Source: a virus
Taxonomy: Duplodnaviria > Heunggongvirae > Uroviricota > Caudoviricetes
Reading direction: 5' to 3' (one strand)
Length of the DNA stretch: 37,548 nt
IMG/VR virus record: IMGVR_UViG_2636416131_000002
Shown here: piece by piece, positions 4,176 to 18,339 of the stretch
How positions within the stretch are numbered: position 1 is the first letter of the stretch
How the letters are laid out: every line of letters starts with the position of its first letter
Position numbers and translations under genes: made by a program
The notes under the pieces: model-generated
What the model was told of the DNA's origin: nothing
What the model saw: only the letters and a program-made list of their open reading frames with translations
The model's database searches: none

Positions 4176-4232
4176 AAAAGGGCGGCAGAGCAGTCACGGA
4201 GTAAAACTGATACCGCCAAACGTCACCAGAAA
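4176..4232 (-). ncRNA. dicF: DicF small RNA (Hfq-dependent, ftsZ-targeting) with its intrinsic terminator
   Basis: Reverse complement of 4176-4232 reads TTTCTGGTGACGTTTGGCGGTATCAGTTTTACTCCGTGACTGCTCTGCCGCCCTTTTT, matching DicF as I recall it; GC stem followed by a U run. Confidence 0.9.
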
Positions 4233-8040: not shown

Positions 8041-9640
8041 AATGTCCCCAGACAATTCTCTGGGGGATTTTTCATGATCAAAGAGACTGTTACGATGAGT
8101 CATAAGGAACTCCACCGACTTCAGATTATTCAGGAGTCAATTAATCGACATATTACTCAGGAACAAGCTGCGGCACGCATTGGCATTTCTATTCGGCAGG
8201 TTAAACGTCTGGTGCAACGGTATAGAAATGAAGGGCCTTCTGGTCTGGTTTCCCACCGACGTGGAAAGCGTCCTAATAATTCCTTTTCTACTGAATTCAG
8301 AGCAACAGTAATTTCACTCCTCAAAGGCCGTTACGCTGATTTTGGACCTACGTTTGCGTGCGAAAAATTGCGCGAGATACACGGTTTATCTTTATCCGTT
8401 GAAACTCTCAGAAAGTGGATGATAGAAGAGGGGTTATGGCGTGAACGCCGTCGTAAAATTGCCCGTATATATCAACGCCGCATGCGACGACCATCTTACG
8501 GTGAACTGATCCAGATTGATGGCTCACCTCATGACTGGTTTGAAAATCGAGGCCCCAGATGTACACTGATCGTTTTCATTGATGATGCCACCAGTGCGTT
8601 GATGGCGTTGCGTTTTGTGCCTGCTGAAACAACCCGGGCTTACATGGAAACCCTCCGGGGTTACCTTAATGATCATGGCGTACCGCTCGCTCTCTACTCT
8701 GATAGACACAGTATATTCAGGGTAAATAACCCAGAGCGGGAAGGTGAGCTGACCCAGTTCACTCGTGCGATAAAGACACTGGGCATCGAGCCAATCCATG
8801 CCAACAGCCCGCAGGCAAAAGGGCGGGTAGAGCGCGCCAATCAGACACTACAGGACAGGCTGGTCAAAGAAATGCGGCTTCAGAATATCAGTGATATTGA
8901 AACAGCAAATGCATGGTTGCCGACCTTTATTGAAGCCTATAACAACCGGTTCGCTACGTCGCCTCGTACTACTGATAATGCTCATCTTGATGTGCACCAT
9001 TCTGAAGAGGAACTGGGTTATATCTTCAGCCTACAGGCGAAGCGCGTTCTGTCTAAAAATCTCACTTTCCAGTACAAAAGCAGTGCGTTTCAGGTACGCA
9101 GTGAGGGCCGGGGATATCGACTTAGGCATTCAGTTGTTACTGTATGTGAGAACTTTGACGGTGAAATTAACGTTCTGTATGACGGGAAAGCGCTGGGCTG
9201 GGAAAAGTATGTTGATGGCCCGGAGCCTATACCACTGGATGATGAAAAGAGTGTCCATGAACGAGTGGATAATGCCCGTATTGATTTACGCTCAAAATAC
9301 TATGTTAAATCTAAAGCTGACCATCCCTGCTTACGCGCCGAACGCAAAGTCATCAGTAAGTTAAGCCCCCGAAGTTACCTAAAAAGAAGCCTGATCCCGA
9401 TAAAATAGATTGAAACCAAGATCGATTCGGTTGAGTGCATATCCATTCATAGGGTAGATTCTTAAGTCGCGTTTCTGGTGTTCATTTTCGGGTGGTTTGT
9501 TACTTGTTTTACCGGGGATATGCCAGAAACGCGCTGAGTCAGTCTGGGCGGTGCGCGTAATGAGGCGTTATGGTAAATAGCCTATGCTAATGTCCGCTAA
9601 GAGCAAGAAGCGGAAGTTGGCAGTTTTGTGGACTGTCCCC
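8041..9640 (+). mobile_element. Insertion sequence carrying the 444-aa transposase; ends not resolved
   Basis: Transposase gene interrupts the replication / nin region. I could not identify terminal inverted repeats; TGTCCCCA occurs in direct orientation at 8043-8050 and 9634-9641 and might mark a target duplication. Boundaries are approximate. Confidence 0.3.
8074..9408 (+). CDS. DDE transposase (rve / integrase-core type), 444 aa, N-terminal HTH
   Basis: N-terminal HTH (ITQEQAAARIGISIRQVKRLVQRY), central integrase-core-like region with conserved D/E residues, size and layout typical of single-ORF IS481 / ISNCY-like elements. Family not resolved without search. Confidence 0.8.
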   Translation: MIKETVTMSHKELHRLQIIQESINRHITQEQAAARIGISIRQVKRLVQRYRNEGPSGLVSHRRGKRPNNSFSTEFRATVISLLKGRYADFGPTFACEKLREIHGLSLSVETLRKWMIEEGLWRERRRKIARIYQRRMRRPSYGELIQIDGSPHDWFENRGPRCTLIVFIDDATSALMALRFVPAETTRAYMETLRGYLNDHGVPLALYSDRHSIFRVNNPEREGELTQFTRAIKTLGIEPIHANSPQAKGRVERANQTLQDRLVKEMRLQNISDIETANAWLPTFIEAYNNRFATSPRTTDNAHLDVHHSEEELGYIFSLQAKRVLSKNLTFQYKSSAFQVRSEGRGYRLRHSVVTVCENFDGEINVLYDGKALGWEKYVDGPEPIPLDDEKSVHERVDNARIDLRSKYYVKSKADHPCLRAERKVISKLSPRSYLKRSLIPIK

Positions 9641-9808
9641 ACAAAAGTGACTACAGAAATAGTTGCAATTCATAATTGATCATGGGTTGTCAGTTAAACT
9701 CGTGGCGATTTAAATAGACTAATTGGGAGTGCGTCCATTACTTATATCTTGTAATGTTAACTATCAGAAATGATACAAAGATAATATGTCTTTAAAGAAA
9801 AGGCTGAT

Positions 9809-9835
9809 GGCGAAAAGTGGCCCGATGAGGGCCAC
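9809..9835 (-). terminator. Intrinsic terminator downstream of flxA
   Basis: Stem GTGGCCC / GGGCCAC with 5-nt loop, followed on the minus strand by TTTTCG. Confidence 0.6.
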
Positions 9836-13345: not shown

Positions 13346-14098
13346 ATGAACCTTGAAGCCTTACCAAAATATTACTCCCCAAAATCTCCAAAATTGAGCG
13401 ATGACGCTCCAGCGACAGGCACCGGTTGTTTAACAATTACGGATGTAATGGCAGCGCAGGGGATGGTGCAGTCGAAAGCACCACTTGGGTTGGCCTTATT
13501 TCTGGCAAAAGTTGGTGTTCAGGACCCTCAGTTTGCGATTGAAGGCCTGCTAAATTACGCGATGGCACTGGATAACCCGACATTGAACAAATTGAGTGAA
13601 GAAATCCGGTTACAGATTATTCCTTACCTCGTGAGTTTTGCCTTTGCTGATTACTCCAGGTCTGCGGCAAGTAAGGCTCGCTGTGAGCATTGTTCAGGTA
13701 CGGGATTTTATAATGTATTGCGCGAAGTGGTGAAACACTACAGACGCGGGGAATCTGTAATCAAGGAAGAATGGGTGAAGGAACTATGTCAGCATTGCCA
13801 TGGTAAGGGCGAAGCCAGCACAGCGTGCAGAGGGTGTAAGGGTAAAGGGATTGTTCTGGATGAAAAAAGAACCCGGTTTCATGGCGTACCGGTATATAAG
13901 ATTTGTGGGCGTTGTAATGGAAACCGGTTTAGTCGTTTACCGACCACGCTGGCACGACGTCATGTCCAGAAGCTGGTACCAGACCTGACCGATTATCAGT
14001 GGTATAAGGGGTATGCGGACGTCATTGGTAAACTGGTAACAAAGTGCTGGCAGGAAGAAGCATACGCGGAAGCGCAATTGAGGAAGGTGACGAGATAA
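13346..14098 (+). CDS. quuQ: Late-gene antiterminator Q (phage 82 / 21 type), 250 aa
   Basis: MNLEALPKYYSPKSPKLSDDAPATGTGC… with zinc-binding CxxC pairs (CEHCSGTG, CQHCHGKG, CRGCKGKG, CGRCNG). GGAG ribosome-binding site; followed by a late promoter and terminator. Confidence 0.85.
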   Translation: MNLEALPKYYSPKSPKLSDDAPATGTGCLTITDVMAAQGMVQSKAPLGLALFLAKVGVQDPQFAIEGLLNYAMALDNPTLNKLSEEIRLQIIPYLVSFAFADYSRSAASKARCEHCSGTGFYNVLREVVKHYRRGESVIKEEWVKELCQHCHGKGEASTACRGCKGKGIVLDEKRTRFHGVPVYKICGRCNGNRFSRLPTTLARRHVQKLVPDLTDYQWYKGYADVIGKLVTKCWQEEAYAEAQLRKVTR

Positions 14099-14129
14099 AT
14101 GATTTTTGCTGAAGATGGCGACATGATGT

Positions 14130-14158
14130 TTGCATTTTTCAAAAAATATGGATAAAAT
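14130..14158 (+). promoter_or_regulatory. Late promoter (PR'-like): -35 TTGCAT, 17 bp, -10 TAAAAT
   Basis: Hexamers read directly, about 30 nt after the Q stop and about 50 nt upstream of an intrinsic terminator. Confidence 0.5.
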
Positions 14159-14203
14159 TTTTTCAATGATGGGCTTTGTATACCCGACGTTAAGAAAAAG
14201 TAG

Positions 14204-14234
14204 AAAACCCGCTGATGAGCGGGTTTTGTGCTTT
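14204..14234 (+). terminator. Intrinsic terminator (tR'-like) after the late promoter
   Basis: AACCCGC-TGATGA-GCGGGTT stem-loop followed by TTGTGCTTT. Confidence 0.75.
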
Positions 14235-14519
14235 AAATGGGGCAATGGTAATGTTGAATCTCATCCCGGGACTCATGTCTGTTAACTTATTATTTAGCTG
14301 GTGACTTGGTTATTTGCCTGATGTTTAAAATGTTTTCTTCCAGTACAATGTCCCTAAACACAATGAGTCTGCTTATTATATTATTAGCAGAGCTATTACG
14401 GCCAAAGTACAGCATAAGCTTTTAAAGCCAATCAACCAGTCATCAAGACAGACGGGGTTATTCATAAAAACTCTCCATGTGTGATCCGATGGGGCCTGAA
14501 ATTAAAGCTTTAATATAGC

Positions 14520-14732
14520 TCATGAAAGGTAAACATTGGCAGCTGAAGGGCCACGCAGACCATTTATCCGGCAAAATTCCACGCGTAATCCGGTGGTAAT
14601 TTCTTCTGCATCGCGGAGATTGAGCGCTGAAACATGAAGCTGGACATCGATACGACCATCGGATGGGGTGATAAGACCCTTGCCGCTTTTGCCGTCAAAG
14701 GTTTTGACAATTCCTGTCATTTTACGGGACAA
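14520..14732 (-). CDS. cspF: Cold-shock protein CspF, 70 aa
   Basis: [41 protein letters not shown]…, CspA-family fold. Confidence 0.9.
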
Positions 14733-15032
14733 AAAAATTCCTTAATACTGATAACTTGGCGCACTATACACACGTTCCTGAAGAAAGCTATAGTTTTTTG
14801 ATGGGGTTGAAGATGGCTGGATGTCTAAAATAAACATTGCTTCATATGTTCAACTATGCGTTAATGATTGCGTCGGTTTGAAGAACAGACGATATACGAA
14901 GTAGTTTACTAAAGCAGTTCTCATTTCAGGTGTTATTCATTTATTCCTTCTTTGAGTCTCTCCAATTAAGTACGAAGTCGTTTCTGTTATGCAAACCATT
15001 TATGCCGAAAGGCTCAAGTTAAGGAATGTAGA

Positions 15033-15248
15033 ATGTCAAATAAAATGACTGGTTTAGTAAAATGGTTTAACGCTGATAAAGGTTTCGGCTTTATTTCTCC
15101 TGTTGATGGTAGTAAAGATGTGTTTGTGCATTTTTCTGCGATTCAGAATGATAATTATCGAACCTTATTTGAAGGTCAAAAGGTTACCTTCTCTATAGAG
15201 AGTGGTGCTAAAGGTCCTGCAGCAGCAAATGTCATCATTACTGATTAA
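15033..15248 (+). CDS. cspB: Cold-shock protein CspB, 71 aa
   Basis: [71 protein letters not shown]. Confidence 0.95.
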
Positions 15249-15528
15249 AATTCATCGCTCGTCTGTATACGATAACGAAGAAGGCTGATGCCTGAGTAGA
15301 GATACGGACAGAGTAGTGAATATTGGATTTCTTTAATAAAAATTAAGGAGGTCCAATACATGAAACAATGGCCAGCATATTTGGCAAAATCTTAATCAGG
15401 AAAAGTATGCTAACCATTGTGGTGAAGTGCAGGTTTGCTGCATGAATAGTTTTACAGCAGAAGCTAACTGCTGGCATGGCAAAACAAAGTGCGTAAGTGG
15501 ATGACTCCCACAAAAAGCACCACAATCT

Positions 15529-15556
15529 CAAACCCGCTCAGGCGGGTTTTTTATTA
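15529..15556 (+). terminator. Intrinsic terminator about 280 nt downstream of cspB
   Basis: AACCCGC-TCAG-GCGGGTT followed by TTTTATT. Confidence 0.7.
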
Positions 15557-15611
15557 TCTGCTTTAAATATATTATTAAAATATAAAAAATACTTGTTACT
15601 AATAAAATCAA

Positions 15612-15782
15612 TCAGGCTACAGCTTTAAGATTTGTCTGGAATACTTTGTTGCAATGAGGGCAGATCAAAAGGGCACCTTTTTGTACTCTTGAAAAACTGT
15701 GTTCTGACTCTTGGGTGCAGTTTGGGCAGGAACATTTAACGAGATAATTACGGCGTGATTTTGAGTCTTTACGTTCTGACAT
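15612..15782 (-). CDS. Small zinc-ribbon protein, 56 aa (CxxC…CxxC)
   Basis: From the internal ATG with an AGGA ribosome-binding site: MSERKDSKSRRNYLVKCSCPNCTQESEHSFSRVQKGALLICPHCNKVFQTNLKAVA. Sits in the moron island between cspB and the holin. Confidence 0.45.
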   Translation of the reverse strand: MSERKDSKSRRNYLVKCSCPNCTQESEHSFSRVQKGALLICPHCNKVFQTNLKAVA

Positions 15783-16001
15783 AGGCTTTTCCTGTATAAA
15801 TGGCCGTATACAGTACACTAAATATGAAAACATTTCTCGTATTATTATTTTATATATGACTTTCTTTCAAAATAATTACTCACATTTTTAATGTGTATGT
15901 TTCTTTAGCGCCGTTGAGAACAGCGTGTGCTGTCAAAACTACCCCGTAGACTCCGATCTTTTCAAACATATTGCACCATCCGTGTACATCGGGGTGAGGA
16001 T

Positions 16002-17557: not shown

Positions 17558-17921
17558 GGTAATATTAAATCGGAACATTTACATCGCGGAATGTAAAATT
17601 TAAATAAAAAGGACTCTTCCATGAGCCAAAATTCCTGAAATCTTAAGGGTAAGATAAAAGGTCTTAATCAGAATGACACGTTATTATTAATAAATAAAGC
17701 TATTCTTTCATTGCTGTGTTTTTCTTTACAAAAGTAATCCTTGCTATGGGTGGTTAATCATGCGTTAATGGTGTTCTGGTTTGTTACAAATTTATCTGAA
17801 GCAGTCATTGTTATAATTTTATTATTTGTACCTCTTGAGATTTCCTTGTTGGTTTTTCTCTCTGATATTTTTTTTTCGGACCATTCTGCCCAAGGGCTAA
17901 TTTCTTCAAAAGGTAATAATT

Positions 17922-18134
17922 ATGTCTAACAAAATGACTGGTTTAGTGAAATGGTTTAACCCTGAAAAAGGTTTTGGTTTCATCACGCCGAAAGATGGCA
18001 GCAAAGATGTGTTTGTCCATTTCTCAGCAATTCAGAGCAACGATTTCAAAACATTAACTGAGAATCAGGAAGTTGAATTTGGTATTGAGAACGGACCTAA
18101 AGGTCCTGCCGCTGTTCATGTAGTGGCGCTTTGA
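17922..18134 (+). CDS. cspI: Cold-shock protein CspI, 70 aa
   Basis: [70 protein letters not shown]. Confidence 0.95.
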
Positions 18135-18339
18135 GGTAGACAATATTACAAACCATATTCACTTTAGATGCCCGTGTTGTCATGGTTCCCAGTATAGAAC
18201 ATCATCTTTTGATGTTTCTGACATGAATCCTTTCGGGGCAAAATGTATCTTTTGTAAATCAATGATGATTACATTTGATAATATTTCACAATACTTAAAT
18301 GCCAGCCGTCTGTCGTTGGATTTAAAAAAGTGAAAATGA

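Follow-up and report, generated by a model that had tools for sequence, protein, structure and literature searches.

The cold-shock gene cspB and its surroundings were studied in a stretch of DNA from a tailed virus (Caudoviricetes; IMG/VR virus record IMGVR_UViG_2636416131_000002), the whole of which, 37,548 nucleotides long, is called the window below and supplies all the positions given. Between 14,130 and 15,556, late-control elements of a lambdoid type are followed by cspF and cspB and then by an 11-codon open reading frame (ORF) with a textbook Shine-Dalgarno (SD) sequence, which an earlier note on this DNA had taken for a micro-protein or regulatory leader. The locus is an already known one. 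In our opinion, it is quite likely that the SD is an arm of a hairpin (P0) at the 3' end of the main cspB RNA, that the ORF is a by-product and that the 3' untranslated region (3'UTR) of cspB is a structured RNA. P0 and the computed sequestration of the SD in it, the RNA 3' end found in published data, the conservation and covariation of the 3'UTR and the lack of conservation of the ORF are the observations that carry this explanation.

Hairpin P0 and the 3' end of the cspB RNA

The window is 99% identical to the cryptic prophage Qin of Escherichia coli K-12 MG1655 over 10.4 kb, in reverse orientation, and in this stretch the MG1655 coordinate equals 1656587 minus the window position. The features on which the argument depends are the following.

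15033-15248, + strand: cspB coding sequence (annotation; CSD domain, E=9.8e-32)
15321-15358, + strand: P0, a perfect 17-bp hairpin (15321-15337 with 15342-15358; inverted repeat I2), the 3' arm of which holds the SD UAAGGAGGU at 15344-15352
15360-15395, + strand: micro-ORF MKQWPAYLAKS, from ATG at 15360 to TAA at 15395, with the SD TAAGGAGGT at 15344-15352, 7 nt ahead of the ATG
15361-15363, + strand: dominant 3' end of cspB-strand RNA in K-12 (Term-seq, Adams et al. 2021, PMC7815308, Supplementary file 1)

The stem of P0 stops one nucleotide before the AUG of the micro-ORF, and the position of the SD within this 17-bp inverted repeat had been overlooked in the earlier note. The hairpin is predicted to have a free energy of -17.3 kcal/mol at 37 °C and -25.6 kcal/mol at 15 °C (fold z=-5.0), and the computed probability that the SD is unpaired in its mRNA context is as low as 0.003 at 37 °C and 0.001 at 15 °C, so that no accessible ribosome-binding site was found in this thermodynamic prediction. 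Since three of the pairs are G.U, the RNA hairpin is specific to the + strand. Its pairing is preserved in the natural variants G15351A, U/C15329 and C15331U, the first of which weakens the SD while changing a U.G pair of the stem to U-A. According to this folding model, the "perfect" SD is probably not a working ribosome-binding site but the descending arm of P0.

The K-12 Term-seq data, obtained at 37 °C in three growth conditions (LB at an optical density (OD) of 0.4, LB at an OD of 2.0 and M63), place the dominant 3' end of the cspB strand 3-5 nt past P0, on the AUG of the micro-ORF. At MG1655 1641226(-), which is window position 15361, 604,404 reads were counted in LB at OD 0.4, and at 1641224(-), window position 15363, there were 1,233,565 reads in LB at OD 2.0 and 2,464,295 in M63; these counts are 5-22 times those at the late terminator tR' in the same samples. 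Because this end falls on the AUG, most of the RNA has the SD without the micro-ORF, and in these 37 °C data the ORF was not found on the main transcript.

An intrinsic terminator was also considered for P0 and ruled out owing to the lack of a U tract: the hairpin is A/U-rich and followed by CAUGAAACAAUGG, and it was not picked up by the terminator scan. In the absence of such a tract, the most likely source of the 3' end would be an endonucleolytic cut or exonucleolytic trimming in the AU-rich single-stranded linker 15359-15369, after which P0 would, as a protective stem, define and guard the 3' end of the main cspB-derived RNA.

The structured cspB 3'UTR and its spread

P0 lies within a long non-coding tail. 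The whole cspB 3'UTR (15246-15556, about 310 nt) folds at -102.8 kcal/mol with z=-5.75 and includes, in addition to P0, the following parts.

15250-15321, + strand: module A, a long hairpin with a conserved stem (15261-15268 with 15302-15309) that encloses the conserved ACGAAGAAGG...CCUGAGUAG (minimum-free-energy fold)
15370-15415, + strand: P1 stem, GGCCAGCAUA (15370-15379) with UAUGCUAACC (15406-15415), with a variable loop; inverted repeat I1
15416-15526, + strand: four-way junction P2-P5, in which P2 closes P3, P4 and P5
15416-15424 with 15518-15526, + strand: P2
15427-15432 with 15438-15443, + strand: P3
15455-15460 with 15468-15473, + strand: P4
15497-15500 with 15508-15511, + strand: P5
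15486-15497, + strand: conserved junction strand AAAGUGCGUAAG
15530-15556, both strands: bidirectional intrinsic terminator between cspB and ynfU, an 8-bp GC-rich stem (15530-15549) plus a U tract

The 5' arm of P1 coincides with codons 4-7 of the micro-ORF. P1 would lead into the four-way-junction RNA as the distal part of the primary transcript, with the terminator at its end. On the ynfU strand a K-12 Term-seq 3' end was found at window position 15527; on the cspB strand, no curated K-12 3' end (37 °C) corresponds to the terminator at 15549. When 15265-15556 was compared with Rfam at permissive thresholds, nothing reached a gathering score, the best match having 22.5 bits and all E-values being at least 0.19. 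The junction resembles a cloverleaf, and a tRNA mimic was rejected after ARAGORN had found no tRNA-like gene. In module A, the inner loop (15270-15300, + strand) and its homologues in alignment A3 contain the nearly invariant ACGA(A/U)GAAGG and CCUGAGUAG, and the AGUA and GAA strands recall, at the level of sequence, a loop-E/sarcin-ricin motif.

A BLAST match to non-coding DNA of the phage-plasmid Cyrano and the phage PHB10, each with an annotated or unannotated csp gene just upstream, showed that this RNA is not confined to Qin. Scans of genome, viral and metagenome collections with a DNA pattern gave 269 matches, 232 of them with enough flank to be examined, and in 227 of the latter the pattern lies 130-220 nt past the end of a CspB-like gene. 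Among the other five, two have a csp gene detectable by tblastn, one (L110) is a true element with none, and two (L186 and L189) are chance matches to which the covariance model does not respond. Of 230 confirmed copies of the element, 229 thus come after a cspB-like gene, be it in a phage, in a phage-plasmid or in a chromosome of Enterobacteriaceae; among the hosts are Escherichia, Shigella, Kosakonia, Enterobacter, Phytobacter, Kluyvera, Superficieibacter, Pseudescherichia and Raoultella. The covariance model (R1) finds a single copy in the window, at 155 bits, and no match near cspI, cspA or cspH-cspG.

The pairing of the distal part was tested on 39 distinct cores. In the four-way junction and P1, 94.2% of alignment cells are paired (22-55% with slid partners), 15 of 36 pairs have changed on both sides, and the observed values were reached in 0 of 500 shuffles. 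P2-P5 were predicted independently by RNAalifold. G.U cells outnumber C.A cells 13 to 1 in P2, 25 to 1 in P3 and 18 to 2 in P5, so it is the cspB (+) strand that acts as the RNA. In P1 (helix 1 of alignment A1), 86% of cells are paired and five pairs changed on both sides, the strand being ambiguous there (G.U to C.A cells, 24 to 36). All eight stem pairs of module A changed on both sides in 20 diverse homologues (RNAalifold). These figures are to be read with the sampling in mind: the aligned sequences fall into few clades; the homologues were gathered via a DNA pattern, and a search for related loci based on CspB returned only 100%-identical ones; and the P4 loop, a part of the P4 3' arm and AGUGCGUAAG were fixed by that pattern, their invariance therefore being no evidence. 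With compensatory changes and a strand preference of this kind, the conserved structured RNA is a candidate for a new family (cspB 3'UTR element). The alternative that the element belongs to ynfU on the - strand was rejected, because many loci keep the element without ynfU and the G.U pairs favour the cspB strand.

The genetic surroundings of the element vary. A ynfU homologue lies downstream of it in many, not all, related loci. The cassette cspF-like (-), cspB-like (+), RNA element, ynfU-like (-) recurs outside lambdoid late regions (L006, L008, L011-L013 and others), and some clades have no ynfU or no cspF in it. The phage PHB10 carries the cassette between the gene of an SOS-response peptidase and umuC. 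The phage-plasmid Cyrano (OV696614; L005, about 1131-1346) contains a 71-aa csp gene, unannotated and headed by a cold-shock-like leader, then the same 3'UTR RNA and terminator, convergent with dnaE, and plasmids related to Cyrano give the same match. In L051, an insertion of about 770 bp (about 9044-9813) splits cspB, and the 3'UTR element is still present downstream. Tandem copies of GAAAGCCU, seven in L019 (a genome contig of Raoultella lignicola) and four in L268 (a metagenome contig), occupy the strand that joins P3 and P4. In non-Qin clades, P5 (columns 136-155 of alignment A1) reads UAAGAGG...GCCUCC, a pair resembling an SD and an anti-SD; the Qin lineage has GUGG...CCAC instead, plus the extra SD-containing hairpin P0 upstream.

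As to what this RNA does, a role in 3'-end processing or stability is the best guess. The structured tail would tune the processing and stability of cspB mRNA, and the distal junction with its terminator may govern 3'-end processing or be released as a separate RNA. A stronger statement, which in our opinion falls somewhat short of probable, is that the cspB 3'UTR of about 310 nt (module A, P1 and the four-way junction, the junction strands of which are invariant) is a functional RNA structure not described before, a specific regulatory domain rather than a passive terminator region, which accompanies cspB-like genes as they move among lambdoid phages, phage-plasmids and the chromosomes of at least nine genera of Enterobacteriaceae. 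Such a domain could be either a protein- or chaperone-sensing platform for the processing and decay of cold-shock mRNA or a released trans-acting RNA.

The latter possibility can be put as an explanation in its own right, overlapping with the one preferred here: the cspB 3'UTR may be a source of trans-acting small RNAs (sRNAs), cleavage at 15361-15363 freeing a stable upstream fragment (module A and P0) and/or a downstream RNA of about 190 nt (P1, the junction and the terminator), which would control other genes as do further sRNAs derived from 3'UTRs. The very abundant discrete 3' end at 37 °C, where cspB mRNA is short-lived, would agree with it, as would the conservation and covariation of the distal domain, which exceed the needs of a simple terminator, and the joint movement of element and csp genes among phages, phage-plasmids and chromosomes. 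The Qin and Cyrano types have a terminator that ends in a U tail, but many clades have no canonical terminator after P2, and the missing 3' end at 15549 indicates that a distal RNA is not abundant at 37 °C. Precedents exist for trans-acting prophage RNAs, namely StxS (PMC7547250) and DicF, which is encoded in the same window (4180-4231, - strand; full-length Rfam match, 76.7 bits). On the other hand, the K-12 RefSeq record annotates no sRNA at the cspB 3'UTR, literature searches gave nothing linking cspB with Hfq or RIL-seq targets, and no seed region or target was identified for an sRNA derived from the 3'UTR. On balance, this reading is possible and rather unlikely.

The 11-codon ORF and other coding readings

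Under the preferred explanation, with P0 at the end of the main cspB RNA, the 11-codon ORF is most likely not a gene and is probably a lineage-specific by-product spanning the linker and the 5' arm of P1. Its start signal is not statistically remarkable, since AGGAGG-N8-ATG is expected 0.35 times per window at the given base composition (at least one occurrence in 32 of 100 shuffles); AAGGAGGT is seen twice in the window against 0.89 expected. Among 80 distinct homologous 3'UTRs, the SD and the ORF are confined to the Qin lineage of Escherichia; in non-Qin homologues, the ATG segment does not align and the position of the SD is occupied by variable sequence. Within the Qin lineage, the substitutions found in the ORF are P5L (in K-12), A9V, K10I, S11T, S11P and W4stop, the nonsense variant occurring in L044, and none is synonymous; no sign of purifying selection was thus obtained. 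In two contigs from IMG/VR and metagenomes (L077 and L180), a deletion took the SD hairpin, the micro-ORF and P1 and left module A and P2-P5, CspB and YnfU being identical in both despite it.

The annotation points in the same direction. A comparison with the small proteins of K-12 Qin, which the earlier note had proposed as a check, brings out two annotated genes it had overlooked, ynfS and ynfU, and leaves the 11-codon ORF unannotated in K-12 despite several small-protein surveys; the cspB-ynfU interval as a whole has no annotation in K-12 or in any of about 40 further E. coli genomes that were listed. The idea of a micro-protein or regulatory leader is therefore not upheld, given an SD paired in a hairpin, a dominant RNA that ends at the AUG, and an unannotated, lineage-specific ORF free of purifying selection. 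A remnant of a gene of the ymcF/ynfQ type was rejected as well, as there is no similarity, and those genes encode zinc ribbons and start right after the csp stop codon.

Several considerations weigh against this conclusion. Term-seq covers 37 °C alone, a temperature at which cspB mRNA is unstable, and more RNA may run through the micro-ORF at 10-15 °C or in late transcripts antiterminated by Q; Csp RNA chaperones could then open P0. The hairpin and the accessibility values are thermodynamic predictions. The frame from ATG to stop is kept in 26 of 27 distinct Qin-type 3'UTR variants, and an intact GGAGG in 20 of 27, so weak selection for the micro-ORF may be at work; moreover, six substitutions, all of them non-synonymous, are compatible with neutrality (P about 0.18) and do not form a strong test.

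An alternative explanation is that the micro-ORF is in fact translated, as a micro-protein or regulatory mini-ORF, with P0 serving as a thermometer or a switch for Csp chaperones which exposes the SD conditionally, and with translation unfolding P1 and remodelling the downstream RNA. A strong SD at a 7-nt spacing, an unpaired AUG (probability of being unpaired 0.97), the retention of SD and ORF by most Qin variants and the real small ORFs that trail other csp paralogues (cspG-ymcF, cspI-ynfQ/ynfR) speak in its favour. The U-rich strand that pairs with the SD via U.G also resembles FourU thermometers; the corresponding Rfam model (RF01795) matches 15324-15355 weakly, at 19.4 bits (E=1), far under its gathering threshold of 60. 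Thermometers of the FourU and ROSE kinds are much less stable than a stem of 17 bp and -17 kcal/mol, and P0 becomes more stable still in the cold, when cspB is expressed. The dominant 3' end puts the SD and the ORF on separate molecules, and the frame, with its nonsense variant and natural deletions, is absent from all the other clades that have the same RNA. For these reasons, and in view of the frequency of such SD-ATG pairs by chance, translation of the micro-ORF is considered very unlikely.

Another explanation, also very unlikely, is that the distal region is conserved because it codes for a small peptide rich in Cys, with the frame ...ADRCDE(V/M)Q(V/D)CCMNSLKAEANCL. In its favour, 31 of 39 distinct sequences leave this frame open, many of them sharing the column of an ATG or GTG; a 41-aa ORF is annotated there in the phage PHB10, and some of the paired changes are synonymous (e.g. 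in L180). Against it stand eight of the 39 sequences, which keep the RNA pairing with the frame broken by indels or early stops, the lack of a conserved start codon or SD, variable sites spread over the codon positions as 4:6:8 (hand count), compensatory changes that alter residues (e.g. Q to R and C to R in Cyrano), equally strong conservation past the stop of the frame (AAAGUGCGUAAG, P5 and the 3' arm of P2) and the absence of CCMNS and KAEANC from those supplements of an Enterobacteriaceae survey of intergenic small ORFs that were available to us.

One more ORF lies antisense to the structured RNA (15343-15531, - strand); its longer versions are hypothetical proteins in PhiR42_1 and PhiR63_1, and it is probably spurious.

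Late control, cold-shock genes and comparison with known systems

The remaining features of the interval are as follows.

13346-14098, + strand: ydfT/quuQ, gene of a lambda-type Q antiterminator of 250 aa (Pfam PF03589; RefSeq ydfT in K-12 and other genomes)
14129-14170, + strand: late promoter PR', with -35 TTTGCA (14129-14134), an 18-nt spacer and -10 TAAAAT (14153-14158); promoter scan 9/12
14165-14170, + strand: inferred PR' start at A14165 and the -10-like pause element AATGAT, followed by GGG (alignment with lambda and SfV)
14204-14234, both strands: bidirectional intrinsic terminator tR', a 10-bp stem (14204-14227) followed by UUUUGUGCUUU, with U tracts on both strands
14376-14465, - strand: ynfS, a 29-aa small protein gene (K-12 b4750; Pfam PF23697, E=4.7e-23)
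14520-14732, - strand: cspF, with a TTG start (annotation; CSD domain, E=5.6e-22)
14872-15032, + strand: cspB 5'UTR of 161 nt, a cspA-type thermoregulator with a cold box (Rfam RF01766)
15612-15782, - strand: ynfU, gene of a 56-aa zinc-ribbon small protein, convergent with cspB (K-12 b4776; Pfam PF23499, E=2.5e-31)

The interval is a late-control module of a Qin-type lambdoid prophage (Q, a constitutive PR' and tR') followed by the known moron cassette cspF-ynfS (-), cspB (+) and ynfU (-). Each of Q, PR', tR', cspF, cspB and the terminator is either a known feature or the direct homologue of one, and the locus itself is already known. The earlier note had placed all of these, and the micro-ORF, correctly, and its reading at the gene level was right, RefSeq annotating ydfT (Q), cspF and cspB here. 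The RefSeq genes are ydfT/quuQ, ynfS, cspF, cspB, ynfU and essQ, the first five confirmed by Pfam; Weaver et al. (10.1101/511675) detected the YnfU protein. Of 5,426 complete E. coli genomes, about 1,600 contain 80% or more of 14000-15900, as do several viable phages (Tritos, PhiR42_1, HannyBb and 2H10).

The Q protein belongs to the lambda family (PF03589, E=3.6e-54, 181 bits against a cutoff of 26.7; E=4.6e-36 to lambda Q, PDB 7UBM). Downstream of its gene, TAAAAT aligns with TAAATT of lambda and CAATGATGGG (14164-14173) with CAACGATGGG, SfV aligning too; thus, at the sequence level, a promoter with its pause element is found as TAAAAT plus AATGATGGG, to be compared with TAAATT plus AACGATGGG in lambda and with SfV. 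The element shared with lambda reads CAAYGATGGG. The lambda counterparts are the -10 of PR' and, where the transcript begins, the sigma-dependent pause element. The terminator, a hairpin with a U tract near the promoter, is homologous to a site annotated as a terminator in SfV and coincides with an in vivo RNA 3' end at MG1655 1642356(-), window position 14231, in all three growth conditions of the K-12 Term-seq data (PMC7815308, Supplementary file 1). The short PR' RNA stops at it on the + strand, and cspF-ynfS can stop there on the - strand. From the end of Q as far as this terminator, but not beyond it, the sequence is homologous to SfV, Stx2c phages and mEp460, which fits an insertion of the moron cassette at the point after tR'. 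The claims of a PR'-like promoter and a tR'-like terminator are borne out by the lambda alignment, by this conservation among phages and by the in vivo end.

The 3' end at 14231 means that a short PR'-tR' RNA (14165-14231, about 67 nt) is made in the K-12 lysogen. This RNA of Qin, evidently made, may be regarded as a positional analogue of lambda 6S RNA and StxS. Another K-12 3' end, at MG1655 1642188(-) or window position 14399 (+), appears in LB at OD 2.0; it lies 3' of tR' and antisense to ynfS, and implies read-through of tR' or a second promoter, promoter-like sites being present at 14355-14384. A 51-aa ORF at 14130-14285 (+), listed as a hypothetical protein in PhiR42_1 and PhiR63_1, overlaps PR', the pause site and tR' and is probably an artefact of gene calling.

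Between cspF and cspB, the spacer 14733-15032 is 300 bp long, as had been stated. It had also been described as long enough for cold-shock 5'UTRs, which holds for the cspB side only. RF01766 matches 14872-15264 at 161 bits (gathering threshold 78), whereas the cspF side scores 14.1 bits (E=0.8), and the 161-nt UTR of cspB with its promoter leaves about 100 bp for cspF. The expression of cspF is very low, no protein has been detected and its function is unknown (review, PMC4956666). A Rho-dependent K-12 Term-seq 3' end lies inside the cspB 5'UTR, at window position 14953. The cspI region (17775-18333, +) has its own cspA-type 5'UTR, with ynfQ 10 nt further on, the annotated start of which is an ATT codon (18145).

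Work on cspB, a classic cold-shock gene, has centred on its 5'UTR. The 3'UTR is longer than the gene, strongly folded and unannotated; its conservation with covariation extends over genera and mobile elements, and one of the strong RNA 3' ends of the published K-12 Term-seq data lies in it. Its 3'-end hairpin and conserved four-way junction offer handles on a long-standing question, the stabilisation of csp mRNA in the cold and its selective removal through PNPase and RNase E after acclimation (background, PMC4956666). What deserves to be followed up is this conserved, structured and unannotated 3'UTR and its defined 3'-end hairpin; the idea of a micro-protein is probably wrong. For annotation, the lesson is that even a flawless SD ahead of an ATG may be an accident of structure, and this ORF should not enter small-protein lists without ribosome data.

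The closest known system is the ydfT(quuQ)-ynfS-cspF-cspB-ynfU-essQ segment of K-12 Qin itself, from which the window differs at seven positions within 14000-15900, with gene order and all annotated genes the same. Two of the differences fall in the 3'UTR: the P0 loop has U15343 in the window and G in K-12, and C15373 is U in K-12, which makes codon 5 of the micro-ORF Pro rather than Leu and leaves P1 with one base pair fewer.

The late-control part shares with that of lambda a lambda-type Q, the aligned -10 and pause element and a short terminated RNA in the lysogen, as described for lambda 6S RNA and for StxS of Stx phages (PMC7547250). The predicted Qin RNA has about 67 nt, in contrast to the 74 nt of mature StxS (PMC7547250). 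Lambda differs in a large insertion of its own between the pause element and the terminator, and the alignment has a 10-nt gap at the lambda -35 region; the Qin terminator, in addition, serves the convergent cspF-ynfS unit.

In the cold-shock part, RF01766 matches the 5'UTR and ORF of cspB at 161 bits and cspI in the window at 112 bits. That family models the mRNA to a terminator right after the ORF, whereas the cspB alignment omits the terminal stretch of the model before its last three positions, and the 310-nt cspB 3'UTR lies outside the family. A short ORF in the transcript tail of a prophage csp paralogue recalls YmcF (after cspG) and YnfQ/YnfR (after cspI), yet ymcF, ynfQ and ynfR are annotated and named as families (YmcF being the "cold shock small protein" family), whereas the cspB micro-ORF has no homologue and no conservation, and its SD is sequestered.

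P0 itself can be compared with two kinds of RNA hairpin. With FourU and ROSE thermometers it has in common an SD paired with a U-rich strand via U.G wobbles and an AUG just beyond the stem; in addition to the low FourU score given above, it differs in being located in a 3'UTR and not ahead of a real gene. The other kind is formed by the 3' stem-loops that stop 3'-to-5' exonucleases, in accordance with the picture of processed, stem-loop-defined mRNA ends summarised by Adams et al. (PMC7815308): here too there is a stable hairpin without a U tract and an RNA end a few nucleotides beyond it. Unlike such stem-loops, P0 holds a consensus SD and stands not at the end of the primary transcript but midway in a longer conserved structured 3'UTR.

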